A stretch of 64,000 nt of DNA from positions 575 to 64,574 of the forward strand of contig JAZAHK010000028.1 in NCBI GenBank assembly GCA_036231405.1. Reading direction: 5' to 3'. Position numbers and translations under genes: made by a program. Position 1 is the stretch's first letter; each line of letters opens with the position of its first letter. Positions 32,556-47,322 of this stretch are shown here, one piece after another. The notes under the pieces were generated by a model. The model worked only from the letters and a program-made list of their open reading frames with translations. It had not been told where the DNA came from and ran no database searches. This DNA is from Nitrospinota bacterium (GTDB lineage: Bacteria > UBA8248).

Positions 32556-34739
32556 ATGACGCCATCAGAAAAAATTATTGATAAAGCCATTAAACAAGGA
32601 CGAAATACCCTCACTGAAGTTGAGGGGAAAGCACTTTTATCTAAATTTGGTATCACTGTTCCTCGTTCTGGAGTTATCAGGCTTGGTGAGGATATAGAAT
32701 CATCCTTACAGGAATTAAAACCGCCACTAGCAGTAAAAGTACTTTCTTCTGAAATAATGCATAAGAGTGAAACTGGCGGTGTTAGGTTAAGCCTGATGTC
32801 AGCGACTGAGGTAGCTAAATCAATAGAAGAAATGTCAGTATTGCCAGATATAAAAAATAAGGCGCTCGACGGATTTCTAGTTGAAGAGATGGTGGCAAAT
32901 CCAGGAAAGGAGCTTGTAATTGGAGGCCTCCACGATAAGCAATTTGGCACAATGATAATGGTCGGTCTTGGTGGGATTTTTGTAGAGATACTCAAGGACA
33001 TATCTTTTCGGCTCTGCCCCATTAATCGAGACGACGCACACTCGATGTTAGAAGAATTAAAAGGTAAACCGATCCTAGAAGGTGTTAGAGGCGAAAGCAG
33101 TGTTTCGATTAAATCGATCGTTGATTTGTTACTAAAGTTCGGTGGGAAAGATGGACTTTTAATGCAAAACAGTGGTGCTATTTCCGAATTCGATCTCAAT
33201 CCCGTAATTGTCAGTTCTGATAAAGCAGTAGCTGTCGATGCAACTGCTGTATTGTTTAGAGAAAACAAATTACAAACCGATATACCTAGAGATAAAAACA
33301 CTAGTGCTGTTGATATATTTGGTCCTCTGTTCAAACCTAAAACAATAGCAGTTGTCGGCGCCTCGACAACCACAATTATCATAGCCAATACTTTTATACG
33401 GCGCATGAAAGCTTTCGGATATCCCGGAGAAATTTATCCAATCCACCCAAAGGCATCGGAAGTAGAAGGTCTGCCAGCTTATAAAAGTTTGGGAGAAACA
33501 CCAAAAAAAATTGATTATGCCTATATTGCAACCCGAGCTGATCGTATCCCAGAGTTAATTGGTGCTGCAAAAGGGAATGTGAAATTTGCTCAAGTCATCT
33601 CAAGCGGTTTTCGAGAAGTACATGAAGGGATTGCCCTTGAAGCCAACCTTGTTACCAAAGCCAAAGAAGCTGGGTGTCGGCTAATTGGACCAAATTGTCT
33701 GGGAATATATTCGCCACGCGGTGGTGTGACTTTTCCTGTAGATGCACCAAAAGAACTAGGATCCGTTGGTGTTGTAACACAGAGCGGTGGACTAGGCACT
33801 GATATTATAAAACGTGGCCAATCACGCGGGCTGCGTTTCAGTGGTTTTGTTACCGTCGGTAATTGCGCGGACATAGGTCCTGCAGACCTACTTGAGTTTT
33901 ATCTTGAAGACAAAGTAACTTCTGTAATTGGGTTTTATCTTGAAGATATAGGTGATGGTCGACGCTTTTTTGAATTGCTGCACAATAGCAAAACCGCAAA
34001 ACCGGTCATCATTATGAAAGGTGGCAGGTCAGAACTGGGCCGTATAGCTGCCGCATCTCACACCGGTGCACTCGCTGATAATATGGCAGCTTGGAGAGCG
34101 CTTGCACTGCAAACACCTTGTGCTTTAGTCGAAACTGTAGATCAATTTATAAATTCATTACTCGCTTTGCAGCAACTTAAACCTAGGCCTAAAAGACCAA
34201 CGAAAAGAGTTGTTTTATTTGGTAATGGAGGCGGCACTAGTGTATTAGCTACAGATTTTTTCGCCGAACAAGATCTCGAAGTAATGCCATTTGAGCTAGA
34301 CACAAAAGAAAAACTAGAGGCTTTACAATTGCCACCGGGCACTAGTGTTGCAAATCCAATCGACACACCTGTCAGAACTTTGCAACTGGAAGAGGGCCGT
34401 GTCGCGGATCGGATATTAAACATTGTTTATCAAAGTGCTAAACCAGATGCTGTGGTAATGCACTTGAATCTTACCGCATTTATAGGACGAGGAGATATAG
34501 ATCCCATAGAAAATTTATTTCAAGTTGCAGTCAATATTAATACAAAATTCCCCAATCAAACACACTTTGTCCTTGCTCTTCGTTCGGATGGATCGGCTGA
34601 AGTGGATGATCGCAAACGTCTCTATTGGGATCGTGCTCTGGAAAATGGAATGCCAGTATTTGATGAATTGCCAGATGCCGCTTACGCACTTTCTACTCTA
34701 AGCCACATTGAACAGAATTTGTTTAAAGCTGGAAATTAA
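32556..34739 (+). CDS. NDP-forming acyl-CoA synthetase family protein, fused ATP-grasp (N-terminal) and CoA-binding (C-terminal) domains
   Basis: N-terminal LTEVEGKALLSKFGITVP ATP-grasp region. C-terminal KPKTIAVVGAS...GYPGEIYPIHPK CoA-binding region and NCLGIYSP ligase-CoA region. Confidence 0.75.
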   Translation: MTPSEKIIDKAIKQGRNTLTEVEGKALLSKFGITVPRSGVIRLGEDIESSLQELKPPLAVKVLSSEIMHKSETGGVRLSLMSATEVAKSIEEMSVLPDIKNKALDGFLVEEMVANPGKELVIGGLHDKQFGTMIMVGLGGIFVEILKDISFRLCPINRDDAHSMLEELKGKPILEGVRGESSVSIKSIVDLLLKFGGKDGLLMQNSGAISEFDLNPVIVSSDKAVAVDATAVLFRENKLQTDIPRDKNTSAVDIFGPLFKPKTIAVVGASTTTIIIANTFIRRMKAFGYPGEIYPIHPKASEVEGLPAYKSLGETPKKIDYAYIATRADRIPELIGAAKGNVKFAQVISSGFREVHEGIALEANLVTKAKEAGCRLIGPNCLGIYSPRGGVTFPVDAPKELGSVGVVTQSGGLGTDIIKRGQSRGLRFSGFVTVGNCADIGPADLLEFYLEDKVTSVIGFYLEDIGDGRRFFELLHNSKTAKPVIIMKGGRSELGRIAAASHTGALADNMAAWRALALQTPCALVETVDQFINSLLALQQLKPRPKRPTKRVVLFGNGGGTSVLATDFFAEQDLEVMPFELDTKEKLEALQLPPGTSVANPIDTPVRTLQLEEGRVADRILNIVYQSAKPDAVVMHLNLTAFIGRGDIDPIENLFQVAVNINTKFPNQTHFVLALRSDGSAEVDDRKRLYWDRALENGMPVFDELPDAAYALSTLSHIEQNLFKAGN

Positions 34740-34936
34740 AAACCTGCCCGTATCTCTTCATTCGTGACAGTCGGTCCCTTCCCAACTAGTGTTGTACGGA
34801 GCACTGCAACGGTCAATCCTCTGGCTAAAACCGAGATAGATAATCGCAGGCTATTTCCGCTGTCGCTGATCGGTGATAGACTGGGGGTAGAAATTGAACA
34901 TCGGCAACGCGCGTCGAAATAGGGAGGAAGCGGGGT

Positions 34937-35905
34937 ATGACGAATAACCGGGGTCAGCAAATAATCGCGCTCGAAGAACATAACAGCGACCAAGGGCTCT
35001 TGGAACTTCCCGCCGAACAGGGTGGTCGAAGCCATAGTGGTCCGACCCTAGATCGCCTCATGGATATTGGTGAGCAGCGGATAAAAAAAATGGACGAATC
35101 CGGAATTGATATCCAGGTGTTGTCTCAGGCCTCGCCTTCGACACAGCGGCTCAACCCGACAGATGCTGCTGAGATTACCCGAGGCGTCAACGACCGTCTA
35201 TTTGAGAGCATGAAGGCGAACCCTGATCGGTTTGAGGCCTTCGCGGCGCTGCCGACGATCGTACCCGATGCCGCCGCCGACGAGATTGATCGATGTGTCA
35301 GTGAGTTAGGTTTCAAAGGCGCGATGATCCATGGCCTGACCAACGGCGCCTTTATTGATGAGCAGCGGTTTTGGCCGATCTTTGAGCGCGCGGAAAAACT
35401 CAACGTACCGATCTATCTGCACCCCGCGGCCCCTCATCCTGACGTGGTGAAGGCCTACTATTCAGACTATGCGGAGAAATTTCCCACAATCCTTGGGCCA
35501 GCTTGGGGCTATACCGTCGAGACGGCAACCCAGGGGTTGCGACTCATCCTTTCCGGGCTTTTCGACAAGGTGCCGGACGTAAAAATAATCATCGGCCATC
35601 TGGGCGAAAGTCTGCCTTTCATGGTGTGGCGTATCGATCAATCGATCAACCGCCCCGGCAGTGCGGGCGTCGCCTTCCGAGATATCTTTTGCAAAAATTT
35701 TTATACCACCACCAGCGGATTTTTCTCTGACCCCGCTATGCTGTGCTGCCTCCAAGAGATGGGCGTGGAGCATGTACTGTTTTCTGTCGACTGGCCCTTT
35801 GTCGAGAACAAGCCGGGGACGGACTGGATGGAATCTATTTCGCTTTCGACGTCGGATAAGGAACTCATCCTGAACGGCAATGCGAAGCGTATCCTGAACC
35901 TCTGA
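34937..35905 (+). CDS. amidohydrolase_2 (ACMSD/LigJ/TIM-barrel metal-dependent hydrolase) family protein. GC-rich, probably horizontally acquired.
   Basis: 322-aa ORF with GC about 58%, versus about 37% in flanking core genes. Motifs IALEEH...IHGL...IIIGHLGE...FSVDWP resemble PF04909. Confidence 0.65.
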   Translation: MTNNRGQQIIALEEHNSDQGLLELPAEQGGRSHSGPTLDRLMDIGEQRIKKMDESGIDIQVLSQASPSTQRLNPTDAAEITRGVNDRLFESMKANPDRFEAFAALPTIVPDAAADEIDRCVSELGFKGAMIHGLTNGAFIDEQRFWPIFERAEKLNVPIYLHPAAPHPDVVKAYYSDYAEKFPTILGPAWGYTVETATQGLRLILSGLFDKVPDVKIIIGHLGESLPFMVWRIDQSINRPGSAGVAFRDIFCKNFYTTTSGFFSDPAMLCCLQEMGVEHVLFSVDWPFVENKPGTDWMESISLSTSDKELILNGNAKRILNL

Positions 35906-36065: not shown

Positions 36066-36114
36066 ATACAAAGGGTGTTGAATAAAGTGCACAAGAACTA
36101 CTGATTTGCTATAA
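36066..36114. repeat. 49-bp imperfect direct repeat (copy 1) containing internal inverted repeat AACTACT...AGTAGTT
   Basis: atacaaagggtgttgaataaagtgcacaagaactactgatttgctataa matches 36691..36739 at 40 of 49 positions. Confidence 0.7.
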
Positions 36115-36266
36115 AAATGCTGAATTGTAAAGTAGTTGTAAACTAAAAAATAGTTCAATATGATCAATGACTTACAGGATATTTTTTATTGAACAGGAGT
36201 GATTCTTTTCCCGTAAGTTTTCGATATCAAGTGATTTTCATTTACAAAGCAAAGGAAATTTAAAGT

Positions 36267-36659
36267 ATGCTAACTTCAATAGATCACATCGTTCTAATAG
36301 CAAATGATATGGACAAAACAATTTCCTTTTACTGCGACGTTTTAGGGATGACTTTAGAAGACTTCACTCCCTCTGGTGGAGGGGAAGCAAGAAAGTCTTT
36401 GAAGTTTGGTGACCAGAAAATAAATCTACACCACGCAAAGCTACCCTATAAGCCACACGCACATAACCCTGTCTCTGGGGCAGTTGATATTTGTTTCTTG
36501 AGTTTTACAACAATCAAAGAGTGGGAGAATATTTTCTCCAAAAATAATGTTGTGATTGAAGGTGGACCCATTCAAAAGACAGGAGCAACTGGTCCCATTA
36601 TATCTCTTTATGTGAGAGACCCAGATCAGAATTTGATAGAGATTTCTAACAAAATATAA
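36267..36659 (+). CDS. VOC/glyoxalase-bleomycin resistance-dioxygenase family protein
   Basis: 130 aa. IDHIVLIANDMDKTISFYCDVLGM ... ISLYVRDPDQNLIEI pattern of the glyoxalase I fold. Low GC (about 35%). Confidence 0.75.
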   Translation: MLTSIDHIVLIANDMDKTISFYCDVLGMTLEDFTPSGGGEARKSLKFGDQKINLHHAKLPYKPHAHNPVSGAVDICFLSFTTIKEWENIFSKNNVVIEGGPIQKTGATGPIISLYVRDPDQNLIEISNKI

Positions 36660-36690: not shown

Positions 36691-36739
36691 ATACAAAAGG
36701 TGTTCAATAATGTACTCGAGAACTACTAATTTATTATAA
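36691..36739. repeat. 49-bp imperfect direct repeat (copy 2)
   Basis: atacaaaaggtgttcaataatgtactcgagaactactaatttattataa. See copy 1. Confidence 0.7.
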
Positions 36740-36853
36740 TATTGATGAGTAGAAAATAAAAATGAGTTCATATGTTTCAATTATTTACAGAAATGACATC
36801 ATTGAGTGGTAGTGAACCTTAAAGCTAATAACACTGGACAAAAGGAGAAAATA

Positions 36854-37594
36854 ATGGATCGTGGCATCTGGGCAGTTTGGTACGACCTACCGAAAGAGGG
36901 CGAGGATGAATACCTTTCCTGGCTACATGAAGAGTACATCCCTCAAACTCTCAAACGTCCTGGATTCCTTTGGGCTGCACATTACAGATCCATTAGGAGC
37001 GAATACCATAATTCAAGCCCTGTACAGATGGCCAAAAGGTTCATGGATGAACCCGAACTGGGACGGGGAGGAGAATACTTCCTATTATTCGGGGCAGACA
37101 GCGCCCATTCATTTCTCGACCCTGCTCCCGAAGACCTACTGAACAGTTATGACGATCGTTCTCGCGAAATGATTGCCCGTCGACAAGGAGACCGAAGCGC
37201 CTATTTCACTGAGGTAGGTCGTGTAGATGGTCCAGAGATCGCGCGGCGCGGCCCTGGTCTTACTCCTGCTCCCATGGTCCAAATGGGCGCCTATCGGTCC
37301 GACGACGAAAATTACAACATCGATGTGGAAAGCTGGTACGTCCACCATCGCCTCGCCTCTTTGCCAGAGATGGAAGGATGCGTCGGGGCACGCAAACTCA
37401 TTTCCTTGGGAGGCTGGGCCCGACATGCTATCCTCTACGAATTCATTTCACCCGAAGCGCGGGAACACTACTATCAAATCCAAGAAGCTCCCGGTGGCGA
37501 CGCAAACCATCCTACCGGTGGTGTTGTCCGAAAACTCATCCATTCACCGGACTCACCGTCTTTAGGCGTGCGCATATGGCCAGAAGTGAAGTAG
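36854..37594 (+). CDS. hypothetical protein, GC-rich, apparent internal tandem duplication of an approximately 110-aa domain
   Basis: Start chosen at the ATG at 36854 behind an AGGAG RBS. The track ORF begins earlier, at 36806. The two halves share SW(L/Y)HEE/HH..P..pGf/eGc..A. GC reaches about 60% in the 3' half. Confidence 0.5.
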   Translation: MDRGIWAVWYDLPKEGEDEYLSWLHEEYIPQTLKRPGFLWAAHYRSIRSEYHNSSPVQMAKRFMDEPELGRGGEYFLLFGADSAHSFLDPAPEDLLNSYDDRSREMIARRQGDRSAYFTEVGRVDGPEIARRGPGLTPAPMVQMGAYRSDDENYNIDVESWYVHHRLASLPEMEGCVGARKLISLGGWARHAILYEFISPEAREHYYQIQEAPGGDANHPTGGVVRKLIHSPDSPSLGVRIWPEVK

Positions 37595-37643
37595 AGGGAA
37601 GATGGCTCAAAATCAGAACAGAGACGATAAATAACAGGTTGAG

Positions 37644-38439
37644 AATGAATAAAAAAAATAAAGAACTTACTACAGCAGATATTCTTAGGAATAAATTCTA
37701 TTCTGAATCTTCAGTTTTTCAACCTGCAAATCTTTTGAGGGAGTCTAGAAGACAGAATCGAATACCTCTTGGAGATGTCCCTCCTGTTTGTATTCTGGAT
37801 CCTGATGGTAATTTGGTGGACTATCTGAAGAATAAAAATCAGACCGTAAAAAATAAATATTGGGCTTGTTACCACTCAAACTTGTACACATTTGAAGTTA
37901 ATGGATTAACAGTAGGTATAATTCCGCGCGCCGTAGGATCTTCATACGCTGTATTAATAGCTGAACAGCTGTTTGTATCAGGCTGTGAACTTTTAATTAG
38001 TATCACTTCTGCCGGTGTCATCAAGGAATTAAATTTTGACAAACAATTTGCATTGATTACTCAAGCAATCAGAGATGAAGGAACGAGTTATCACTATTTA
38101 CCAAAAAATGAACCGTCAGTGCTTTGCCAAAAGTTACTCAGTAAATTAAGAAAAAATGGGAGTCTCTGGGTAGAAGTAAATAGCTGGACGACGGATGCTC
38201 CTTACAGAGAAACACAATTCGCAATAAATGCAATGAAGAAAGAAAATGTAACCTGTGTAGAAATGGAGGCTTCTGCATTGTATGCATTCGCAAAAGCAAA
38301 AGATAAAAAAGTCATTTGTTTTGCGCACCTAACAAACACAATGGCACAAGAAGAAGGTGATTTTGAGAAGGGAGATGATTTCGGGAGCTTGGAAATGATC
38401 AAGTTAATTGAAGAGATTCTTGAAAAATTGGGACAGTGA
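37644..38439 (+). CDS. nucleoside phosphorylase (PNP/UDP/MTA phosphorylase superfamily)
   Basis: VGIIPRAVGSSYAVLIAEQL and VEMEASALYAFAKA motifs. Start reassigned to the ATG at 37644 (MNKKNKELTT). The track ORF at 37378 overlaps the upstream gene in another frame. Low GC. Confidence 0.7.
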
Positions 38440-38442
38440 AAG

Positions 38443-38600
38443 ATGCAGATTTGTAAATTCGCCATAGATCTTACTTTGACAATATTTGTTGCAAGTTGTT
38501 CTTATCCAGCGAGAATACTAGGCAAACTTTGACATCATACTTCCAAAGGATTTCATAACCCAAAAGGTAGCCTAAAGAAAAATTTCTGGTTCAGGTGTGT
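38443..38600 (+). pseudogene. 5' fragment of an MBL-fold lipoprotein gene (decayed paralog of the 41697..42752 gene), interrupted by TGA where the intact copy has TGG
   Basis: About 75% nucleotide identity over about 155 bp to 41697..41855. Compare atgcagatttgtaaattc...gcaagttgttct...cacttccaaaggatttc with atgcagaattgtaaattc...gcaagttgctct...cacttccaaaggatttc. The frame reads MQICKFAIDLTLTIFVASCSYPARILGKL*. Confidence 0.7.
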
Positions 38601-38765
38601 TCCTTAGTTTTTAAGCAGACCTTTAAAATTAATTTTTTTCAATGCCTAGAAAGTGCCGTCTAATCATGTAACGCCAAAGACAGATGCATGAGTGTGGAAC
38701 GCCATAGTTGTTATTTGAAATTGTTTCTAGTAGTCTACCGGCACACAATCAAATGAGGAGAAAAA

Positions 38766-39761
38766 ATGAAAAGATTTATGTATTCCCTATTGGCAATAGT
38801 TTTTCTATTTTTTGCGACGTCTAATGTAGATGCTAGGAAATTGAAAGATATTAAGATAACGCAGGCAGTGGCCTCCTTTGCGTTTCTGCCTATTAGTTAT
38901 GCCAAGGCTGCAGGTTTCTATGCAGCTGAGGGACTAAACGTTACGCAGATAAAGACTCGTGGTGGTGGACCAGATCTCGTTGCTTTGATGTCTGGAAATG
39001 TACAATTCAACGCTAATGCAGGGACCTACCAAATAGGGGCTCTTAAGAAGAAACGTAAATTATTAAATGTCTATAATTTCTATAAACGGAATCTAATCAG
39101 TGTTGTGATTAGCGCGAAGAAACAGAAGGAGCTTGGTGTTTCACCGTCAGCGCCTTTAGTTAAACGTGCGGCGGTTTTGAAGGGCCTACGTATGGGTATG
39201 ACACGTCCTGGTTCTCTTACTCATAAGCAGTTAAAACATTTAGCACGTGTTGGTGGACTGGGAGAAAAGGATGTTAGGATCATAGCAATTGGTGGACCTC
39301 CTTCTCTTTTGGCAGCACTAAAGAGAGATCAGATCGATGGATTTGCTATATCTCCTCCGGCTGATCGTATTGCAATTTCTCGTGGTTTGGCTGTTATGTG
39401 GGTTGATAATGCAGCAGGAGCTGATCCATCCATTGATCCATTTATGATGGAAAGTATTGTGACCACGCAGGAGTATGCTGACGCGAACCCAGATGTAGTT
39501 CGTGCTATGATAAGGGCTACTCGGAAGGCTGTTTCTGAAATCAGTAAGAAGAGTGCCAAAGAGGTTTTTGATGTTATTAAGGGGGAGTTCAAAAAAGTTA
39601 AACCTGACGTTGGAGAACTTGCTATAAAGGCAGTGAAACCTGCACTGAATCTTAAGGGAAACGTCACAAAAAAAATGGCTGAGAACACCATGCGCTTAGA
39701 TGGGCGTAAAGAAGTCAGTGCGGATGAACTCTTCTCCACATATACAGCGAAGTTTCAATAA
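38766..39761 (+). CDS. ABC transporter periplasmic substrate-binding protein (NMT1/SsuA/TauA-like; sulfonate/nitrate/bicarbonate family)
   Basis: Signal peptide MKRFMYSLLAIVFLFFATSNVDA. NMT1-like core. GC about 47-50%. Confidence 0.75.
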   Translation: MKRFMYSLLAIVFLFFATSNVDARKLKDIKITQAVASFAFLPISYAKAAGFYAAEGLNVTQIKTRGGGPDLVALMSGNVQFNANAGTYQIGALKKKRKLLNVYNFYKRNLISVVISAKKQKELGVSPSAPLVKRAAVLKGLRMGMTRPGSLTHKQLKHLARVGGLGEKDVRIIAIGGPPSLLAALKRDQIDGFAISPPADRIAISRGLAVMWVDNAAGADPSIDPFMMESIVTTQEYADANPDVVRAMIRATRKAVSEISKKSAKEVFDVIKGEFKKVKPDVGELAIKAVKPALNLKGNVTKKMAENTMRLDGRKEVSADELFSTYTAKFQ

Positions 39762-39793
39762 TCACCGATTCTTTTGTTTGAAAGTTATTTTGT

Positions 39794-40588
39794 ATGAGTA
39801 AAAACGATCCAGCAATATCCCTGCAGGGAGTGTCTCGTATCTTTCACGCACAGCGTGGTGATGTGGTGGCTCTTGCGGATGTTGAACTTGACATTCAGGA
39901 TGGTGAGTTTATCACTATGGTAGGCCCGTCTGGTTGTGGCAAGTCAACAGCTCTCAATCTTGTAGCGGGTCTTTTGGAACCGTCTGGCGGCAATGTTTTA
40001 TTCAGAGGTTCCCCAACTAGTGGCATTAATCGAGAAATTGGCTACGTTACACAGTCTGATAACCTGTTCCCATGGCGAACAGTGATTGAAAATGTGATGT
40101 TTGGTATGGAAATGCGTGGTATTGGCACCAAGGAGGAGCGTCGAGATAAGGCTTTGGCGCTCCTTGATAGAGTCAACCTGACGGGTTTTCAAGATCACTA
40201 TAGACATGAGTTGTCTGGTGGTATGCGCCAAAGGGTAAATATTGTTCGCACTCTTGCTTATGATCCTAAAGTTCTTTTGTTGGATGAGCCGTTCGGGCCA
40301 CTTGATGCGCAAACTCGATTACAATTACAAGATTTGTTACTTAAACTCTGGCATGAAAGAGAAGGGATTACCGTAATTTTTATAACACATGAATTGAATG
40401 AAGCCATAGCTTTGGCTGATAGGGTGGTTGTAATGTCTGCGCGTCCTGGCCGAGTTCGTGAAGTGGTACCTGTAGATATCCCACGCCCGCGTGATATTTA
40501 TAGTATTCATTCTGATCCAAGTTTCCGTGATATATATGATCAAATTTGGAAGCATCTTGGAGAGGAAATGAAAGAGAGTTCACTGTGA
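39794..40588 (+). CDS. ABC transporter ATP-binding protein (SsuB/TauB/NrtD-like)
   Basis: Walker A GPSGCGKST, ABC signature LSGGMRQRV, Walker B LLLDEPF. Confidence 0.9.
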   Translation: MSKNDPAISLQGVSRIFHAQRGDVVALADVELDIQDGEFITMVGPSGCGKSTALNLVAGLLEPSGGNVLFRGSPTSGINREIGYVTQSDNLFPWRTVIENVMFGMEMRGIGTKEERRDKALALLDRVNLTGFQDHYRHELSGGMRQRVNIVRTLAYDPKVLLLDEPFGPLDAQTRLQLQDLLLKLWHEREGITVIFITHELNEAIALADRVVVMSARPGRVREVVPVDIPRPRDIYSIHSDPSFRDIYDQIWKHLGEEMKESSL

Positions 40589-41346
40589 ATGTGTTCCAAC
40601 TAACTGGTTGGCGAATTCTGGTTGCATTTGTTCTCCTTGCTTCGTGGCAACTGTTTGGCGGTGATTTGTTGTCAAATCCATACGAAATTGCTGAGTATTT
40701 ATGGGAATATATTGTGACCGGAGGCGATTTCTGGCTTGATATTACCTCTACTTTTAAAGCTACAGTGATCGGTTATTTTATAGGTGCAATTGCAGGTTTG
40801 CTCTTTGGACTTTTGCTGTCGCAGAGCGAGAAAGCCTCACTAATTTTCAAACCATATGTTCTTGCAGTCTATGGAATCCCACGAATTGCGCTGGCCCCAG
40901 TTTTCATTGCTTGGTTTGGTATTGCACTCCTATCAAAAGTAATGATGGCGGGGATGGTTACTTTCATGTTGGTGTTTTTTAATACCTATGAAGGAATTCG
41001 TTCGGTTGATTTAGATCTGCACAATACTGCCCGTGTCCTTGGTGCCGATCGCTGGCAACTGTTTTTTTACGTAACATTACCTAACGCAAGTCCATGGATA
41101 ACAGCAGGTCTCAGGATCGCGATCCCTCAAGCGTTGGTGGGCGCAGTAGTTGCGGAATTTATTGCTTCGGAGCACGGTCTGGGTTTTCGTATGATGGAAA
41201 ATACCGGACAGCTTGCAATGGAAGGAGTTATGGCCGGTGTTCTTATCTTAATGTTGATTGTTGTTCTTCTAAATTCTATTCTTGATAGAGTGGAGGATTA
41301 TATCTTGCGCTGGCGCCCAAAGATAACCGATACAGAGATCGTGTAA
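40546..41346 (+). CDS. ABC transporter permease (SsuC/TauC-like, BPD_transp_1)
   Basis: Six hydrophobic segments with an EAA-like loop. The true start may be the in-frame GTG at 40585, which overlaps the ATPase stop as GTGA. Confidence 0.8.
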   Translation: MEASWRGNEREFTVNVFQLTGWRILVAFVLLASWQLFGGDLLSNPYEIAEYLWEYIVTGGDFWLDITSTFKATVIGYFIGAIAGLLFGLLLSQSEKASLIFKPYVLAVYGIPRIALAPVFIAWFGIALLSKVMMAGMVTFMLVFFNTYEGIRSVDLDLHNTARVLGADRWQLFFYVTLPNASPWITAGLRIAIPQALVGAVVAEFIASEHGLGFRMMENTGQLAMEGVMAGVLILMLIVVLLNSILDRVEDYILRWRPKITDTEIV

Positions 41347-41696
41347 AGGTTATGTTGAAAGTTAAAATAGAAAGCGTGAGGCAGAGTTTAAATTTATTGA
41401 AAGAAAAATTTGAAAATGAAAACGATTGATTGCCCTCTTGTGATTTTCGCTTCAAACATGCAAATCCTGATTGTTGTACTGCTTGTAATCAACCTCATTA
41501 TAGAAACTGCTTGAAAGCTTTTCGAGACAAAATGGAAGAGAGTCCAGAAGCACGTTTTATAGCTTTGTGTCCATCGTGTATAGATTCTATTTCGTGGCGA
41601 ATAGATGCTCAAGAGGTCGTATCTTCAAGTTGGAATGAGTGGGAGTTAGAAACATAGGAGTAATGAGAGAAGTGACGGAGAGGGCTTTAATCTAAA

Positions 41697-42752
41697 ATGC
41701 AGAATTGTAAATTCTTTATATTTTTTTTGTTGTCAATATTTATAGCAAGTTGCTCTGATGCAGCGAAAATTCCTGATAAGCCTTGGCATCACACTTCCAA
41801 AGGATTTCGCAATCCCGAAGGTAGTCCTAAAAAAAAATCCTGGATTAATCGTTTTCCTTGGATTGTGAGTAGACCCTTTAAATTGATGTTTTTTGGCATT
41901 CCAAAACTACCTCCTGAACATGTAATGAAAAAGAAAGAAGTAGTGCATGGATTAAAGGCAACTGCAGGAAAAGATACAGTAACTTGGTTGGGCCATATGA
42001 CGGCCTTACTTCGTATTGACGGCAAGTCTATTTTAACTGATCCCTGGCTTACCAGTCATGCTTCTCCGGTTCGTCCGCTCGGTCCAAAACGTTATGTCAA
42101 ACCAGCTTTGACAACTTCAGAACTCCCTCCAATAAATTTTATTGTTATTTCCCACAGTCATTTTGATCATCTTGATCTTCCCACAATCGAGGCGATTCCG
42201 AACCGAGAAAAAATCACTGCAATCGTGCCTCTCGGAATTGGCAAATATTTCAAAGAATATGGATATAAAAAAATTATTGAATTGGATTGGGAGAAATCTG
42301 TTACTGAAGACGGAATAAGTTTCACTGCGCTTCCAGTTATACACTGGTCTAAAAGATCGGTTTTTTCTACAAATGATACACTTTGGACCGGTTGGGCGAT
42401 AAAGGGTGCTGGTGGGACTCGTGTTTTTTTTGCTGGAGATGCAGAATACAGTTCCGTTTACCAAGATATTGCTAAAAGACATGGTGGTTTTGATCTTTCT
42501 TTGCTTTCTATAGGTGCTTTTTTACCAAGGGTCGTGATGCACGGTTCACATTGTGTCCCGGAAGATTGTATTAAAATAGGAAATGATATGGGAGCAAAAA
42601 ATCATCTTGGAATGCACTGGGGTACTGCTCCACTTGGAGATGATACCCCGTTAGAGGCTCTTCGACGTTTTCGAAATGGGGCTAAGACATTAGGGATACC
42701 TGCAGGACGGGTATGGATTATGAAAATCGGTGAGACGCGTATTATTGAATGA
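41697..42752 (+). CDS. MBL-fold metallo-hydrolase lipoprotein
   Basis: Lipobox LSIFIASC. VISHSHFDHLD metallo-beta-lactamase motif. Confidence 0.8.
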   Translation: MQNCKFFIFFLLSIFIASCSDAAKIPDKPWHHTSKGFRNPEGSPKKKSWINRFPWIVSRPFKLMFFGIPKLPPEHVMKKKEVVHGLKATAGKDTVTWLGHMTALLRIDGKSILTDPWLTSHASPVRPLGPKRYVKPALTTSELPPINFIVISHSHFDHLDLPTIEAIPNREKITAIVPLGIGKYFKEYGYKKIIELDWEKSVTEDGISFTALPVIHWSKRSVFSTNDTLWTGWAIKGAGGTRVFFAGDAEYSSVYQDIAKRHGGFDLSLLSIGAFLPRVVMHGSHCVPEDCIKIGNDMGAKNHLGMHWGTAPLGDDTPLEALRRFRNGAKTLGIPAGRVWIMKIGETRIIE

Positions 42753-42806
42753 GTTATACTCAAACGATCGTGTGAAAGCTAGAGTTTAATGTATAGGAGG
42801 TTGTGT

Positions 42807-43673
42807 ATGTCCGAATATGATTTGAAAGGAAGAACGATAATTGTGACTGGTGCAGGTCGTGGTCTTGGTCGAGCTATGACCGAGGCACTTACAGAAGCAG
42901 GTGCGAATGTAGTTGCAGCAGCTCATATAACAGAAGATTTTCCAGAACTTCAAGAAGCATGTTCGAGTCATCCTGGTGACCTATATTGTATAATGGGAGA
43001 TATTCGAAAATCAGACGATTGCGACAGAATTATTTCCGCGACTTTAGAGGTATTTGGTGATGTCCATGGCCTTGTTAATAATGCAGGACTAACTTTTACC
43101 TATATTACTCCGGATGCGTACAGACGAGATGCTTTTAAACAGAGAAAAGAATATCCAAAATTTTATGAAGCAAGTGATGAGGTTATACAAAACGTGATCG
43201 ATACTAATTTCGTAGGTGCAGATAAGCTATGCCGACGAGTAGTTCCTCTAATGATTGATCAGGGTTGGGGTCGTATCGTCAACGTCACAACCATGTATCG
43301 AACAATGACACGTCAGGGAGCGTCGCCATACGGTCCTTCCAAGGCCGCACTTGAATGTGCAACTGAAATTTGGGCAAAAGATTTAGCAGAGACCGGAGTA
43401 ACTGTAAATGTTTTAAATCCTGGTTCTGGTGCCGCTACTCCAGGAATGGCAGAGGAAATGAAGGAATATAGTAAGAGTTTAGAGAATCCTATCCTTATCG
43501 AGGCTGAATTAATGAAAGCTCCGATTGTCTGGCTTATTTCGGACGCAACCAATGAAATTACAGGAATGCGTTATGATGCAAAGCCTTGGGACCCAAATAA
43601 ATCTGCAGCCGAAGAAGCAGAACGAATTGGGGCTAAGGCAGGCGTTCTCCTCTACTCCATGCCAGACTACTAA
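42807..43673 (+). CDS. SDR-family oxidoreductase
   Basis: TGAGRGLGRAM glycine-rich NAD(P) motif. Start set at the ATG at 42807 behind a TAGGAGG RBS. The track ORF starts at 42789. Confidence 0.85.
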   Translation: MSEYDLKGRTIIVTGAGRGLGRAMTEALTEAGANVVAAAHITEDFPELQEACSSHPGDLYCIMGDIRKSDDCDRIISATLEVFGDVHGLVNNAGLTFTYITPDAYRRDAFKQRKEYPKFYEASDEVIQNVIDTNFVGADKLCRRVVPLMIDQGWGRIVNVTTMYRTMTRQGASPYGPSKAALECATEIWAKDLAETGVTVNVLNPGSGAATPGMAEEMKEYSKSLENPILIEAELMKAPIVWLISDATNEITGMRYDAKPWDPNKSAAEEAERIGAKAGVLLYSMPDY

Positions 43674-43684
43674 GTGGGTTATCT
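43466..43684. repeat. 219-bp direct repeat, copy 1 (native 3' end of the SDR gene)
   Basis: About 93% identical to 44982..45200. Runs from atatagtaagagtttagagaatcctatc through ctaagtgggttatct. Confidence 0.9.
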
Positions 43685-43783
43685 TCATTTCTTACCCACT
43701 TTATGTTACGATCACTGAATGAGCCGACTGCTGCCGTTATTTTGGTACGCATGTGTCGCTGCATTTATGCTAAAGGTATTTTT

Positions 43784-44959
43784 ATGTTTACAGCAACTAA
43801 AGATCGATCACTGCTTACTACCACTACGGGTGCCTTGCCACGTCCTACCTGGTATACTGAAAACCTTCGGGGGCAGCCATTATCCATAGGATTTTCACAG
43901 AAAGGTTATCGCGAACAACATTTTGATTGTCTCTCTTGTCATATTAGTGCGCAGAAGAGAGCAGGGATTGATATCTTTGTTGATGGTGATACAAGGCTCG
44001 ATGATGACGTCGCTGGTCGGAGCTGGGTGAGTTATGCCTATGAGCGGATAAAAGGTTTTGGTGTACCGGATATTTCTGTACAGCCCTATGCTGCAATGGC
44101 TGACAGTGGTCCTGGTGACTTCATATGGGAAGTTATAGAGACACGACTAACTCCTCATGTAGAGGATAAGATTGGTGAGACTTCGCTCCAACTCGATCGG
44201 GCATGGAAGGCGATTGCACCCATGACCAGTCGGCCCGTTAAGATTGGCTCAATCTCCGCCCAGGTTATTGCCCATATGTGCGTTAACGATCACTACACTA
44301 GCCGCTTTGACCTGCTAATGGCTTTATCGGAGGCATTGAATCATGAGTATCACGCTCTCGCCGATGCTGGAGCGCCAATTGTTCAAATAGAAGAACCCGC
44401 AATTCATCAATCGATGTACGCTCTCAACCCTGAAATTACTGCTGAACAGTATGTAGAAGCTTTTAACGTGGAAGTTGCTGGTTTGCGCGAAAAATGTGAA
44501 GTCTGGTGCCATGCTTGTTGGGGTAGCCCTGGTGCACAAAAAATGTTTCCTTCGGGAGCTTCCTACAAGGAGGCTCTACCATATTTTGATAAGCTCGACA
44601 TCGATGTCTTGACAGTCGAAGGTGCTACAAACGGCGGTATTGATGTCCCTCTATACGGTTCTATGATCTCCAAGGACAAAAAGATAGCGGTTGGAGTTAT
44701 CAGTCACCGCACAATGCAGATAGAAAGACCTGAAGAGGTTGCCAGTTTAATTCGTCTATGTCTCCAACATATTGAACCTGAGCGCTTGGTCCTCTCGAGT
44801 GATTGTGGATTTGGTCGTCAGTCAATGAGCCGTATGCATGCCTTCTATAAAATGGTGTCCCTGGTCCGGGGTGCAAATATTGTGCGTCGTGAGCTCGGAC
44901 TTGAGGAAGTTGCCGTTCCGGCAGCAGATCCCAACTTTTCTATGGTACCCATTCGTTAG
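43784..44959 (+). CDS. cobalamin-independent methionine synthase (MetE) C-terminal-domain-like / UroD-fold methyltransferase family protein
   Basis: Zn-ligand-like motifs VWCHACWG and LSSDCGFG as in Meth_synt_2. GC about 50%. Start set at the ATG at 43784. The track ORF starts at 43703. Confidence 0.65.
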   Translation: MFTATKDRSLLTTTTGALPRPTWYTENLRGQPLSIGFSQKGYREQHFDCLSCHISAQKRAGIDIFVDGDTRLDDDVAGRSWVSYAYERIKGFGVPDISVQPYAAMADSGPGDFIWEVIETRLTPHVEDKIGETSLQLDRAWKAIAPMTSRPVKIGSISAQVIAHMCVNDHYTSRFDLLMALSEALNHEYHALADAGAPIVQIEEPAIHQSMYALNPEITAEQYVEAFNVEVAGLREKCEVWCHACWGSPGAQKMFPSGASYKEALPYFDKLDIDVLTVEGATNGGIDVPLYGSMISKDKKIAVGVISHRTMQIERPEEVASLIRLCLQHIEPERLVLSSDCGFGRQSMSRMHAFYKMVSLVRGANIVRRELGLEEVAVPAADPNFSMVPIR

Positions 44960-44981
44960 TAATTGGTGTAAGAAAAAAATA

Positions 44982-45189
44982 ATATAGTAAGAGTTTAGAG
45001 AATCCTATCTTTCCCGAGCCAGAACTAATGAAGGCCCCAATTGTCTGGCTGATTTCCGATGCAACCAATGAAATTACAGGAATGCGTTATGATGCAAAGC
45101 CTTGGGACCCAAATAAACCTGCAGCCGAAGAAGCAGAACGAATTGGGGCTAAGGCAGGCGTTCTGCTCTACTCCATGCCAGACTACTAA
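44982..45189 (+). pseudogene. orphan 3' fragment of SDR gene (duplicate copy; last ~68 codons, ...KSLENPIFPEPELMKAPIVWLISDATNEITGMRYDAKPWDPNKPAAEEAERIGAKAGVLLYSMPDY*)
   Basis: Direct-repeat copy 2 (44982..45200) of the SDR 3' end. It has no 5' part or start codon. Confidence 0.85.
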
Positions 45190-45241
45190 GTGGGTTATCT
45201 GAAACATAGCTAACTACAAAATATGGTTGAATGATATGAAT

Positions 45242-46432
45242 TTACGGCAATCCACTTTGCTTAGAAAAAGTTTGCGTTAGTTCTAAAATATTTTCATCCA
45301 TTCCAGTGGATCCTAGAAATGATACTCCTACAGGGCAATCTTTAACTGTCAAAGCTGGCATAGATACTTGTGGAAATCCACCGAGACCAGCGATGCATGT
45401 TAATGCCATGGTTTTGGCTCTGAAGAGTTCAAGAGTTTTGCTGTCAGCTTGTTTTAGAGGAGCGATACAGGGTGCGGTTGGAAAAACAAGCACTGTTCCA
45501 GGTGGAATAATTTTGTCAATATGCTCCTTGATTTCGTTCCTTTTCTTCAGTGCTTCGTTAAATTCTGAATCAGTAATTGCTTCTGCAGTTTGAAATCGTT
45601 TATCTATACCCGGACCAAGGGAAGGATTATGTTCTCTGACCCATGGTAGATTGGTTATTTTAACTTCACCTGCTTGTATTATTCTGAACGTTTCCCACCA
45701 CTTATCGAGTCCTTCAGAAGAGACGGTAATTTGCTGGATATCTTTACCTAAAATCTCTTCAGTGAAATTTGTAAAAGCCAATTGGATTCCTGGGTCAGAG
45801 TTGTCGACGGCATCTTTGGCGACGATAATCCTGTTTATTGGTGTGTTTTCGCGTTTTCCTTTTAGTAATGAATGCCCAATTATAGGCATAAGGTTTGTTT
45901 TTGAGGAAAACCAACCTACTGTATCAAAGCTTGGTGCCATGGCACGTGCGCCATCAAGGCTTACACGTCCTATAGTAGGCCGAATCCCCCAAATTCCACA
46001 AAACGATGAAGGAATACGAACGGATCCCCCTGTGTCCGATCCTATTGAAAAATCTACAATCCCTGCTGCAACAGCTGCCGCTGAACCAGAAGATGAGCCA
46101 CCAGGTAATCGTTCGGGAGCTTTGCAATTAATCGGGGTGCCGTAATGTTTATTCGCACCTGTTAAGCTATAAAAAAACTCGTCGCAAATGTTCATTCCTA
46201 CTAAGGTTGCCCCGGAGTTTAATAGTTGAGTGATCGCTTTTGCGTTAACAGTAGAAGCCAGAGCGTGTTTATGAAATTCAGGGCTGCCATTTGAAGTTTT
46301 ATGTCCAATTACGTCGAATAGATCTTTCGCCATAAAATTAAGCCCAGCAAGGGGGCCAGTTTTTGAACCGGAAATAGGTTCTTTAAGGTTGTCTGGTACA
46401 AGACAGTTAACTGGATCTTCTAGAGGGAACAT
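45242..46432 (-). CDS. amidase-signature family amidase
   Basis: GGSSSGSAAAVAAGIVDFSIGSDTGGSVRIPSSFCGIWGIRPT, the AS signature with the Ser-cisSer-Lys triad. Confidence 0.85.
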   Translation of the reverse strand: MFPLEDPVNCLVPDNLKEPISGSKTGPLAGLNFMAKDLFDVIGHKTSNGSPEFHKHALASTVNAKAITQLLNSGATLVGMNICDEFFYSLTGANKHYGTPINCKAPERLPGGSSSGSAAAVAAGIVDFSIGSDTGGSVRIPSSFCGIWGIRPTIGRVSLDGARAMAPSFDTVGWFSSKTNLMPIIGHSLLKGKRENTPINRIIVAKDAVDNSDPGIQLAFTNFTEEILGKDIQQITVSSEGLDKWWETFRIIQAGEVKITNLPWVREHNPSLGPGIDKRFQTAEAITDSEFNEALKKRNEIKEHIDKIIPPGTVLVFPTAPCIAPLKQADSKTLELFRAKTMALTCIAGLGGFPQVSMPALTVKDCPVGVSFLGSTGMDENILELTQTFSKQSGLP

Positions 46433-47322
46433 TAAATTTTTGGTACCGGAATTTGGCCTGAAAACCAGTCAAGAATTTCTACGCCATCCCAGCATACTAC
46501 CCCAGGCTTAGAGAGGATTTTTTCAAAGGCCTCCCTAACATAAGGAATCCTATGTGGAGACCCAGAAAGGTATGTATGCATTGCTAAAGCCATAACTCTA
46601 GGTTGTCCATCTTCAGTTTCAGCATATATTGTGTCAAAATAGTCCAAGGCCCTATCTCGGTAGATGTGAGAGACGTTGTTTTGTATGTTCATCATTACAA
46701 TGTCATGAAGTTCATAATTATATGGAAGAGCTGCGACTGGTTTATGTTTAGTTCGTGCCCAGATGGGTTGGTCGTCTAAGACCCAGTCCCCTATATATTC
46801 GATCCCAGCTTCTGAAAGATGGTCTAAGGTGTCAAATGTTTGTGTTAGCCCAGGACCAAACCAACCCCGAGGCTGTGTGCCGGTAAAGTTTTTGATAACA
46901 TGCAATGAATGATCAATTACACTTCGTTCGTCTTCGAGTTTGTGCATTGGTAACTGCTCGTACGAATGTGCATTGAATTCCCATCCAGATTCAAGGCATG
47001 CCCCGGCAACTGCAGGATATTCTTCGCAAACTCGTGCATTTAGGGTTACCGTAGGTCTAATTCCCAAGTCATCCATCATTCTCTTTAAGCGCCAGAACCC
47101 CACGCGCATGCCGTATTCGTGCCAGGACCAATTTGGATGGTCAGGTGTCATTGGCAGACCTTGTGGTGGAGAAATTACCATTCGTGCCATAGCACGATCA
47201 ATATTCCAGACTTCAAGAGCAAGTATTGGCCAAATAATTACACGTCCATTGTCTGGCAAAGATAGTTGCTGCCTGCTCTCTATTGTTGAATAATCGATCC
47301 TTTCACTTGGCTTCATTTCCAC
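46432..47322 (-). CDS. polysaccharide deacetylase family protein (PuuE/allantoinase-like)
   Basis: 296-aa ORF. Its start overlaps the amidase stop by 1 nt. Deacetylase-like NodB pattern (TLDHLSEAGIEYIGDW...). Confidence 0.6.
   Translation of the reverse strand: MEMKPSERIDYSTIESRQQLSLPDNGRVIIWPILALEVWNIDRAMARMVISPPQGLPMTPDHPNWSWHEYGMRVGFWRLKRMMDDLGIRPTVTLNARVCEEYPAVAGACLESGWEFNAHSYEQLPMHKLEDERSVIDHSLHVIKNFTGTQPRGWFGPGLTQTFDTLDHLSEAGIEYIGDWVLDDQPIWARTKHKPVAALPYNYELHDIVMMNIQNNVSHIYRDRALDYFDTIYAETEDGQPRVMALAMHTYLSGSPHRIPYVREAFEKILSKPGVVCWDGVEILDWFSGQIPVPKI

Follow-up and report, generated by a model that had tools for sequence, protein, structure and literature searches.

A decayed MBL-fold gene fragment as a probable recombination scar in a variable locus of a marine Nitrospinaceae genome

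The gene fragment that follows a nucleoside phosphorylase (PNP) gene in the window analysed here, a 64-kb stretch of DNA from a marine nitrite-oxidiser (Nitrospinaceae), is real and probably an ordinary recombination scar from gene shuffling. This stump marks the join between a transporter operon of alphaproteobacterial origin and a highly variable stretch; the region from the DUF4286-like gene D (36854) to the MOSC gene at 47529, its other boundary, is best explained as a flexible island in the genomes of marine Nitrospinaceae (Table 1).

Table 1. Positions of the features in the window and the evidence for each
Feature	Position	Strand	Evidence
Intergenic element E, copy 1, upstream of glyoxalase cassette	36066..36177	+	72% over 113 nt to 36691-36790
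Intergenic element E, copy 2, downstream of glyoxalase cassette, upstream of D	36691..36805	+	88% to L084 1006-1063
DUF4286-like gene (D), conserved left flank of variable region	36854..37594	+	weak Pfam DUF4286 match
Nucleoside phosphorylase gene (PNP), accessory module	37645..38439	+	Pfam PNP_UDP_1, 1e-21
Stump: MBL-fold lipoprotein pseudogene, 5' 81 codons	38443..38686	+	blastn E 6e-29 vs 41694-41893; in-register identity
ABC operon upstream leader	38677..38765	+	left end of L084-shared segment; overlaps final 10 nt of stump
Periplasmic substrate-binding protein (SBP), NitT/TauT-family ABC importer	38766..39761	+	Pfam NMT1 / NMT1_2
ABC transporter ATPase	39794..40588	+	Pfam ABC_tran, 5.6e-33
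ABC transporter permease	40585..41346	+	Pfam BPD_transp_1, 1.6e-32
Small Cys-rich (zinc-finger-like) ORF, Znf	41418..41657	+	tblastn 80% identity over 74 aa
Intact MBL-fold lipoprotein gene (MBL), NAPE-PLD/UlaG-like Lactamase_B_2	41697..42752	+	Pfam PF12706, 2.7e-32
SDR gene, conserved island gene	42807..43673	+	Pfam adh_short
MetE-like (cobalamin-independent synthase family) accessory gene	43703..44959	+	Pfam Meth_synt_2
SDR 3' copy, second scar of the same kind as the stump	44981..45200	+	blastn 93.6% over 220 nt, E 6e-92

Comparison of the window against itself with blastn aligned 41694-41893 with 38440-38639 at 74.6% identity over 201 nt (E 5.9e-29), and a repeat search of the window returned a gapless direct repeat of 200 nt at 74%. 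The stump begins 3 nt after the PNP stop codon and has its ATG (38443) in common with the intact MBL gene (41697). The translations are MQICKFAIDLTLTIFVASCS for the stump and MQNCKFFIFFLLSIFIASCS for the intact gene, so that the signal peptide and the lipobox are kept in the stump, whose codon 30 is TGA (38530-38532) where the intact copy has TGG. The original prediction, which had reported the shared ATG, the lipobox, the TGA and a repeat of ~155 bp at about 75% identity, is borne out in all but the extent: the similarity is real but longer, continuing in register to ~38686 (identities at 19 of 26 positions in 38661-38686 and at 26 of 47 in 38640-38686, where 11.9 +/- 3.0 would be expected by chance) and dropping to chance past 38687 (5/24). 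The stump thus spans 81 codons (~244 nt), of which codons 30 (TGA), 55 (TAG) and 69 (TAG) are in-frame stops, and contains no indel, in agreement with its reading as a decayed MBL 5' end.

From its site patterns, the stump is a third MBL lineage, equidistant from the window MBL and the MBL clade of other Nitrospinaceae. In a three-way comparison, 24 sites are shared by the stump and the window MBL but not by the homolog in contig L001, 24 by the stump and L001 but not the window MBL, and 33 by the latter two but not the stump; on these counts, the stump did not arise by recent duplication of the MBL gene now present in the window. The 33 private changes are spread evenly over codon positions (10, 12 and 11), compared with 5, 6 and 13, and 8, 6 and 10, on the functional MBL branches, a contrast of limited statistical strength, given the weak constraint on the N-terminal region. 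The conceptual protein of the stump is nearest to Nitrospinaceae MBLs (53-56%), with alphaproteobacterial MBLs at 45%. The intact MBL is matched at 100% by a protein from a Nitrospinota MAG and has 83% nucleotide identity to the L001-type clade and a dN/dS of 0.17.

The three ABC genes that follow the stump are intact, under purifying selection and horizontally acquired. The predicted gene calls agree with the Pfam matches to NMT1/NMT1_2, ABC_tran and BPD_transp_1, as well as PNP_UDP_1 and Lactamase_B_2 for the flanking genes. The 3.2-kb interval, described in the original prediction as a self-contained operon, does carry the operon but also includes Znf, the native upstream neighbour of MBL in relatives; Znf is an intact ORF of 80 aa in L001 (1568-1810) and is frameshifted in the window by a 1-nt deletion near 41437 that leaves two broken ORFs. 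The permease likely starts at a GTG overlapping the ATPase stop (GTGA), which yields 253 aa, the length of the alphaproteobacterial homologs. The SBP-ATPase-permease layout, the NMT1/SsuA-like SBP, the BPD_transp_1 permease and the TauB/SsuB-like ATPase resemble those of NitT/TauT (sulfonate, nitrate, taurine or bicarbonate) importers, and the operon is best explained as a predicted functional importer of this type. The top NCBIfam matches of the ATPase are taurine, Sao and nitrate ATPases, all below cut-off, and the SBP scores 46 bits against the SsuA_fam cut-off of 163; because all NCBIfam matches fall far below the curated cut-offs, the importer is assigned only as NitT/TauT-type, not by substrate.

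The operon is alphaproteobacterial in ancestry, deriving from a conserved FAA-hydrolase/SBP/ATPase/permease/OsmC operon. The SBP shows 88% amino acid identity to the alphaproteobacterial proteins P0243/P0245 and is 82-89% identical to proteins always found in this five-gene context, on contigs with a GC content of 50-57%, one of them labelled Alphaproteobacteria. In Alphaproteobacteria, the genes that natively accompany the transporter encode an FAA-family hydrolase and OsmC instead of sulfonate monooxygenases. The operon is missing in nine related Nitrospinaceae contigs spanning the junction (L001, L085, L086, L090, L074 and the shorter L103, L104, L011 and L025), which, together with the alphaproteobacterial nearest relatives, upholds the predicted acquisition. 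In contrast, the predicted GC content of 47-52% did not hold: 38766-41346 has 43.2% (GC3 0.34-0.39), a modest excess over the core genes (38.3 +/- 3.3%; GC3 0.29 +/- 0.04) that makes for a far weaker argument from composition than predicted. Given the donor-type GC3 of 0.54-0.74, the base composition of the cassette is best explained as having since largely adjusted to the host.

Across 11 related contigs, the D-to-MOSC region displays at least four gene orders. D (GC 53%, GC3 51%), found in L001, L074 and L084-L090 at 81-94% nucleotide identity, is followed by Znf, MBL, a 344-aa ORF that the window lacks, SDR and MOSC in L001, L085, L086 and L090, an order with which L103, L104, L011 and L025 are consistent across the parts they cover; by PNP, SDR and the MetE-like gene in L074; by E and the ABC operon, with neither PNP nor stump, in L084; and by an amidase gene in L087-L089. 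PNP, present in L074 (94% nucleotide identity) and missing from the L001-type contigs and L084, occurs elsewhere in unrelated gene contexts, and the MetE-like gene is likewise present in L074 and missing from the L001-type contigs. Relative to L074, its closest relative, the window differs by an indel of 38431-42788 (stump, ABC, Znf and MBL), with 53 nt of unrelated sequence at the L074 junction; relative to the L001-type contigs, the indel is 37601-41415 (PNP, stump and ABC), and the D stop there abuts the Znf start (TAGATG). Synteny thus confirms the ABC operon as accessory, but the variable unit is not the 3.2-kb cassette alone. Of the two predicted scenarios, destruction of an MBL paralog by the cassette retains the decayed MBL and the acquired operon, but the stump is no recent duplicate and the differing unit is larger than the cassette; recombination within tandem MBL paralogs finds no comparative support, given that neither tandem MBLs nor PNP followed by intact MBL occur among the related contigs compared.

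The identities across the locus are mosaic. D is 87% and ABC 97% identical to L084 (dS 0.04-0.08), whereas L074 shares D and PNP at 94% (dS 0.22-0.24) and SDR and the MetE-like gene at 98%; SDR is 82% identical to that of L001. L084 1080-2653 matches 38676-40247 at 97%, with the ABC leader alone at 87.6%. This similarity starts at 38676/7, where the MBL similarity stops, leaving a 10-nt overlap with 8/10 matching (AAAGACAGAT vs AAAGAAAGAA in MBL).

Cassettes flanked by partial direct repeats recur twice within 10 kb, at the MetE-like gene (SDR 3' repeat) and at the glyoxalase gene (E copies). The SDR repeat, which brackets the MetE-like gene, consists of the final 209 nt of SDR and 11 nt downstream, and 12 of its 14 differences are clustered within 43494-43544. 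Further E-related copies lie at 32483-32518 and at 996-1063 of L084.

On balance, the stump is probably a scar left when divergent versions of the locus recombined, by homology at one end and illegitimately at the other, with the product PNP-M'(1-244)-ABC-Znf-MBL; mosaic recombination in a flexible island describes the event better than simple insertion into a paralog. We infer the order of events and the mechanism as follows. Within the island, single genes and small operons would be gained, lost and swapped between lineages, and the ABC operon, first derived from an alphaproteobacterial operon, would have been exchanged recently among Nitrospinaceae. A divergent MBL allele (M'), of which the stump would be the remnant, may have stood directly behind PNP in one island version, and a segment with ABC-Znf-MBL from another version would have recombined with it, with homology in MBL or downstream of it as the anchor of one end and an illegitimate join at codon 81 of M' as the other, for which AAAGA-AGA may have served as microhomology. 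The product would be no different if a circularised fragment had integrated via a single crossover, and the stump would have evolved neutrally afterwards. Speaking against this history, the postulated parent, PNP followed by an intact MBL, is in no sampled genome, the order ABC, Znf, MBL was seen in none outside the window (L084 stops inside the ATPase gene), the microhomology is short and could be due to chance, and L074 has SDR directly after PNP. Either L074 lost M', or stump, ABC, Znf and MBL entered as a unit with the junction made elsewhere.

If the ancestral order was instead PNP-MBL'-Znf-MBL, and ABC inserted into the upstream copy or replaced its 3' 800 nt, the geometry would fit, the equal distance of the stump from both MBL lineages would also be expected for a paralog predating the window/L001 split, and the three stops imply a long neutral period. 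We nevertheless consider such an old in situ paralog unlikely, because neither a second MBL nor a trace of one occurs in the nine related Nitrospinaceae contigs that include MBL or its flanks, D directly abuts Znf in the L001-type contigs, and the identity to L084 is higher for ABC than for the flanking D, so that, measured against the age of the stump, the ABC block moved recently. It is less probable still that the window-like order is ancestral and the L001-type, L074 and L084 orders are deletion derivatives, the stump being an old scar unrelated to the arrival of the cassette. Streamlined marine genomes readily lose DNA, and a single indel separates L074 from the window, but the unrelated 53 nt in L074 are no clean deletion, the 344-aa ORF is absent from the window, L084 has an E copy in place of PNP and stump, several independent imprecise losses would be required, and the ABC genes are of foreign ancestry.

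The window comes from a single MAG contig, from which alone the PNP-stump, stump-ABC and ABC-Znf junctions are known. The population is highly polymorphic at this locus, and such islands are difficult to assemble. An assembly chimera joining strain variants into an arrangement found in no single cell is very improbable all the same: collapse of repeats cannot generate the stump, which is unique sequence and 74% identical to MBL; the adjoining PNP gene has a C-terminus (LGQ) that resembles that of the distant L099 PNP (LRQ); and independent confirmation of D-PNP, SDR-MetE-like and the ABC leader comes from L074 and L084. The least credible source is a site-specific element (an integron cassette, or an integrase island restoring the target gene end) that moved cassettes and duplicated its target, an explanation suggested by three cassettes flanked by direct repeats of adjacent sequence and by the recurrence of E at cassette junctions. 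It is largely refuted within the window, where no integrase, transposase or recombinase domain was detected in any ORF of at least 90 aa, and no tRNA or Rfam match in the 64 kb; the junctions lack attC-like hairpins, E and the junctions fold no better than shuffles (z -0.8 to +1.3), the candidate motif TCATTGAR is not enriched, and the repeats, 113-244 nt long, consist of ordinary sequence from genes or intergenic regions and share no core site. In E. coli, e14 or phage 21 integrates into the end of the protein gene icd and supplies a replacement gene end. There, the insert lies between an intact gene and a displaced partial copy of one gene end, an arrangement like that of the SDR 3' repeat, but the window cassettes lack an integrase, phage genes and a conserved att core and consist of 1-5 ordinary metabolic genes.

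Recombination between island versions has known parallels. Products of this kind are documented to arise by homology-facilitated illegitimate recombination (HFIR) and by integration of circularised DNA through a single crossover, including in E. coli (PMC3240628), and both routes have been suggested to explain orphaned gene ends at the T6SS and Rhs loci of Vibrio (PMC5361080). The latter paper cites the first descriptions of HFIR, which came from naturally competent Acinetobacter, Streptococcus pneumoniae and Pseudomonas stutzeri. As in such scars, foreign cargo adjoins a partial copy of a resident gene, one junction is homologous and the other non-homologous with possible microhomology, no dedicated recombinase is present, and the architecture is repeated within one locus. 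The present case differs in that the mechanism is drawn from sequence anatomy and comparative synteny, the parents being postulated, and in that the retained piece is the 5' stump of a housekeeping-type hydrolase gene, not a toxin or immunity module.

A limited literature search found no description of such an island in Nitrospinaceae. Flexible genomic islands of streamlined marine bacteria are of additive or replacement type (PMC4033161, PMC10872708), and the present locus resembles them in its conserved flanks (D and MOSC) with differing content among related genomes, in its cargo of transporters and small-molecule enzymes, and in the implication of homologous recombination in the flanks. 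The Nitrospinaceae locus differs in having no tRNA or integron anchor and in the survival of gene-end fragments, so that its junctions can be mapped to the nucleotide.

The gene calls of the original prediction agree with Pfam (see the table), and the DNA closest to the window belongs to MAGs and metagenome contigs of uncultured marine Nitrospinaceae. Between the decayed 5' fragment (stump) of an MBL-fold lipoprotein gene and the intact MBL gene, an ABC transporter operon (the cassette) is present as predicted, but it is not alone there: a small Cys-rich ORF (Znf; pattern CPxC ... CxxC ... CPSC) occupies the same interval. All relatives keep Znf ahead of MBL (80 aa in the related contig L001), with an intact copy; in the window, a 1-nt deletion (TGCCC-TCTTGT vs TGTCCTTCTTGT) splits it into two ORFs, the mark of either a pseudogene or a homopolymer error in the assembly. 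Neither Pfam nor NCBIfam matches the intact Znf protein.

Features of the variable region and its left flank, in window coordinates
Feature	Position	Strand	Source
Pentapeptide-repeat gene	31881-32303		
E, copy of the recurring intergenic element	32483-32518		
ATP-grasp/CoA-ligase gene	32556-34739		
Amidohydro_2 gene	34937-35905		
E, copy left of glyoxalase	36066-36177		
Glyoxalase gene	36267-36659		
E, copy right of glyoxalase	36691-36805		
DUF4286-like (D)	36854-37594	+	Pfam
Nucleoside phosphorylase (PNP)	37645-38439	+	Pfam
MBL fragment (stump)	38443-38686		
NMT1-type binding protein (SBP)	38766-39761	+	Pfam
ABC ATPase	39794-40588	+	Pfam
Permease	40585-41346	+	Pfam
Znf	41418-41657		
Lactamase_B_2 MBL with lipoprotein leader	41697-42752	+	Pfam
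SDR	42807-43673	+	Pfam
MetE-like	43703-44959	+	Pfam
Partial SDR repeat	44981-45200		
Amidase	45242-46432	-	Pfam
Polysaccharide deacetylase	46432-47322	-	Pfam
MOSC	47529-48074	+	Pfam

Self-comparison with blastn confirmed that the fragment repeats the 5' end of MBL (41694-41893 vs 38440-38639, 74.6% over 201 nt, E = 5.9e-29). The decayed gene end is genuine and extends somewhat beyond the roughly 155 bp originally assigned to it. In-register similarity reaches about 38686, with 26/47 identities in 38640-38686 (11.9 ± 3.0 at random placements) and 19/26 in 38661-38686, and is at chance level from 38687 onward and upstream of 38440; the fragment therefore comprises 81 codons, in frame and free of indels. 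It shares the ATG of the intact gene, keeps the signal peptide and the lipobox (IFVASC vs IFIASC), and contains in-frame stops at codons 30 (TGA for TGG), 55 (TAG for TGG) and 69 (TAG). It is a homologue of the N-terminal lipoprotein leader of the family and lacks the catalytic domain, the similarity stopping before the MBL domain, which begins near residue 94. The first part of the stump, 38443-38532, remains open for 29 aa: the ATG lies 3 nt past the end of PNP, and a signal peptide and the lipobox (VASC) are included; in principle, this ORF could be translated as a tiny lipopeptide or couple translation into the downstream operon.

The intact gene encodes a Lactamase_B_2 protein (PF12706, 2.7e-32, Pfam; NAPE-PLD/UlaG-like) in whose translation the HxHxDH metal motif reads HSHFDH. 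At 100% identity, it matches 'MAG: MBL fold metallo-hydrolase [Nitrospinota bacterium]' from a 139-kb contig; exact-sequence look-ups of the window MBL and of the SBP, aimed at an independent copy of the contig, found neither on record. The nearest MBL relatives outside Nitrospinaceae (L002-L009, 64-71% aa) come from Alphaproteobacteria MAGs, marine Rhodospirillales among them. The ABC cassette has its relatives in that same broad group, and MBL and ABC are unlinked there.

Over its first 240 nt, the fragment was compared with two intact genes, the window MBL and that of L001, a representative of the tight clade that also includes L085, L090, L103 and L104. The fragment agrees with the window MBL against L001 at 24 sites and with L001 against the window MBL at another 24, and the two functional genes agree against the fragment at 33. 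These patterns form a star, in which the fragment is no nearer to its intact neighbour, 3 kb downstream, than to orthologues in genomes that are about 18% divergent. Changes private to the fragment are distributed over the codon positions as 10, 12 and 11, as expected without selection, compared with 5, 6, 13 and 8, 6, 10 on the functional MBL branches, a contrast that is suggestive rather than significant because the leader region is weakly constrained. In blastp searches, the conceptual protein of the fragment matched three Nitrospinaceae MBLs (P0001-P0003) at 53-56% (E = 3e-28) and alphaproteobacterial members of the family at 45% or lower. From the star-like sites and the closest match to Nitrospinaceae MBLs, we infer that the fragment represents a third, deep Nitrospinaceae MBL lineage, long dead, rather than a fresh duplicate.

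The periplasmic SBP of the cassette, of the NMT1/SsuA-like type (Pfam NMT1, 6.6e-17; NMT1_2, 3.6e-13) has the N-terminus MKRFMYSLLAIVFLFFATSNVDA, with a signal peptide, and shares its operon with an ATPase (ABC_tran, 5.6e-33) and a permease (BPD_transp_1, 1.6e-32) whose start overlaps the ATPase stop. All NCBIfam scores fall far under the curated cut-offs (SsuA_fam, 46 vs 163.5; TauB, 233 vs 357; SsuC, 94 vs 347) and give no equivalog assignment to taurine, aliphatic sulfonate or nitrate; the placement of the three genes in the SsuA/TauT/NitT group is only loose. All three are intact and under purifying selection (dN/dS about 0.15). The SBP shares 82-89% identity with proteins always encoded in the order FAA-family hydrolase, SBP, ATPase, permease, OsmC, in operons located on contigs of 50-57% GC, one of them labelled Alphaproteobacteria. 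The nucleotide identity between the cassette and these operons is just 71-72%, and their GC3 is 0.54-0.74 vs 0.34-0.39 in the cassette. The high amino acid identity, combined with the nucleotide identity and the GC3 gap, thus shows that the cassette derives from this alphaproteobacterial operon type and has since been ameliorated to a large extent; the cross-phylum transfer is old, and the movement among Nitrospinaceae recent. No recognisable remnants of the FAA hydrolase 3' end or the OsmC 5' end were found at the cassette ends. The cassette GC of about 47-52% in the original prediction proved too high: it is 43.2%, compared with 38.3 ± 3.3% (GC3 0.29 ± 0.04) for core genes outside 31-47 kb, and the compositional argument for a recent transfer is only modest.

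At least four gene orders from D to SDR/MOSC were identified (L001, L074, L084, L085-L090, L103, L104). L001, L085, L086 and L090 (81-84% nt identity to the window; MBL of L001, dS 0.63, 83% nt) share the order amidohydrolase, D, Znf, MBL, 344-aa ORF, SDR, MOSC, in which the Znf start abuts the D stop, and lack PNP, the ABC operon and the fragment; the shorter contigs L103, L104, L011 and L025 match this L001-type order across the parts covered. L074 (94-98% nt; D and PNP, dS 0.22-0.24, 94% nt; SDR, dS 0.10, 97% nt) has D, PNP, 53 unrelated nt, SDR and MetE-like, without the whole of 38431-42788 (fragment, ABC, Znf and MBL). In L084 (GCA_029935935.1, JAPOGP010048224; D, 87% nt; ABC, dS 0.04-0.08, 97% nt), D is followed by about 140 nt containing a copy of E and then by the ABC operon from window position 38676 on; PNP is absent, only the last 10 nt or so of the fragment are present, and the contig ends inside the ATPase gene, where its view of the ABC, Znf and MBL succession stops. 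In L087-L089, D (81% nt) precedes an amidase on the other strand. None of the related contigs carries two MBL genes, and the succession of PNP and an intact MBL is absent from the six closest accessible PNP clusters (L074, L075-L078, L099, L100) and from the alphaproteobacterial MBL loci L002-L009; PNP homologues elsewhere occupy unrelated contexts, and MBL never follows them. Hence, one chromosomal position between conserved genes differs in content among related genomes, and the D-to-MOSC stretch is a flexible island that is mosaic at the level of modules, in divergence as well as in gene order.

The fragment is a partial duplicate of a resident gene that directly abuts cargo missing in relatives, and a second such case was found at the 3' end of SDR. 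The last 209 nt of SDR and 11 nt downstream (43465-43684) are repeated beyond the MetE-like gene (93.6%, E = 6e-92), which the two copies bracket. Twelve of the 14 differences lie inside the 50 nt of 43494-43544, and the remainder is about 99% identical, suggesting recombination within the repeat. The glyoxalase gene is bracketed by copies of E (72%), and another copy lies at 996-1063 of L084, between D and the ABC operon. E is about 60-115 nt long and turns up repeatedly at cassette junctions, with each copy just upstream of a gene (glyoxalase, DUF4286-like and ATP-grasp synthetase; the ABC operon in L084), and may be a shared promoter/leader or a recombination handle. Partial direct repeats of neighbouring sequence border three of the five blocks that are extra in the window relative to L001-type contigs.

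Across the whole window, ORFs of 90 aa or more contain no domain of an integrase, transposase, recombinase or phage; the window also lacks tRNA and tmRNA genes, and no Rfam family matched in 30-50 kb. E and the cassette junctions lack attC-like or other hairpins (fold vs shuffles, z -0.8 to +1.3), and the inverted repeats detected do not exceed short matches at chance level. The motif TCATTGAR, noticed near several junctions, is not enriched (7 observed vs 10.4 expected), and the promoter/terminator scan was at or under shuffle expectation, with no plus-strand site in 38440-38765. The missing integrase domain and attC-like folding speak against an integron gene cassette, and the lack of a recombinase/transposase, a tRNA/att target and terminal inverted repeats speaks against an integrase-mediated island or transposon; with these defining features absent, the involvement of any site-specific element is scarcely credible. 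An assembly chimera is only slightly more plausible and still very improbable: three junctions are known from the window contig alone, but several others are corroborated, and the sequence of the fragment is unique. Similarly, an ancestral window-like order followed by deletions in other lineages seems quite improbable, since it requires several imprecise losses and ignores the blocks found in relatives but missing in the window.

The core observation of the original prediction is genuine; its interpretation, an ancestral MBL paralog destroyed by the incoming transporter or recombination within tandem paralogs, was right in part only. An old in-situ tandem MBL paralog disrupted by the cassette is compatible with the star-like divergence but finds no support in any related contig, and we consider it unlikely. 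We favour, at slightly better than even, the view that a divergent MBL allele left a recombination scar in the flexible island, the specific mechanism being less certain than this general interpretation. The geometry PNP, MBL'(1-244), ABC, Znf, MBL, with Znf at its native site before the intact copy, could arise if an ABC-Znf-MBL segment from one island version recombined with a version having an MBL allele directly behind PNP, the right end pairing by homology in or beyond MBL and the left end joining illegitimately inside the resident gene. Alternatively, a circularised ABC-Znf-MBL(5') fragment integrated by one crossover would give an identical product. The mirror-image arrangement SDR, MetE-like, SDR(3') would reflect the same process with the anchor on the left. 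Homology-facilitated illegitimate recombination and single-crossover integration of circularised DNA are both experimentally documented (PMC3240628), and both routes have been proposed for orphaned gene ends at T6SS and Rhs loci (PMC5361080). Homology to L084 begins at 38676/7 and MBL similarity ends at 38686; the common 10 nt, 38677-38686 (AAAGACAGAT vs AAAGAAAGAA), match at 8/10, an overlap that would fit a microhomology joint but is too short to be significant or to serve as proof. Because L074 has PNP next to SDR, the junction may have been created in another genome and then imported as a block; this arrangement and the lack of parents among the sampled contigs are the reasons why we rate the scar no higher.

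A more far-reaching proposal, which we regard as a long shot, is that island growth follows a regular route independent of recombinases, with cassettes carrying short copied ends of their neighbours (the 5' end of MBL, the 3' end of SDR, or E) and entering by single crossover of circularised DNA. Partial gene ends would then act as attachment sequences for cassette exchange in streamlined Nitrospinaceae, and the stump, which begins 3 nt behind PNP and retains an ATG, a signal peptide and a lipobox, might owe its persistence to a coupling of the ABC operon to PNP in transcription or translation.

Nitrite oxidation in the ocean is mainly the work of marine Nitrospinaceae, almost all of which are uncultured. 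The locus is an ordinary, well-preserved case of flexible-island evolution, of a known kind and involving no new kind of system. It appears to combine an ameliorated, horizontally acquired predicted importer of the NitT/TauT type, at whose left junction lies an old MBL stump, with at least two sister scars nearby. As such, it would provide a nucleotide-resolution record of accessory-gene change in these organisms by recombinase-free cassette shuffling, in which a transporter operon of alphaproteobacterial ancestry and several single-gene modules move between lineages with no visible mobile-element machinery, leaving datable gene-end scars. The locus can also aid the reading of MAG microdiversity, and it flags a predicted importer under purifying selection.

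Several further observations concern the island and its flanks. An ORF of 341-344 aa between MBL and SDR (L001 2865-3899; also in L085, L090, L103, L104, L011 and L025) is not present in the window; it has an N-terminal hydrophobic segment, shares about 40 nt with the 3' end of MBL, and has no match in Pfam or NCBIfam. In L086 (2216-2516, compared with window 31320-34924), guaA is joined almost directly to the amidohydrolase gene, and the pentapeptide-repeat and ATP-grasp/CoA-ligase genes therefore form a further variable island block. The Amidohydro_2 gene (GC 54%, GC3 0.64) and D (GC 53%, GC3 0.51) greatly exceed the 38%/0.29 of the core, and both are kept in every low-GC Nitrospinaceae relative despite their high GC; D is also found at 81% nt identity in the high-GC contigs L087/L088 (52-53%).
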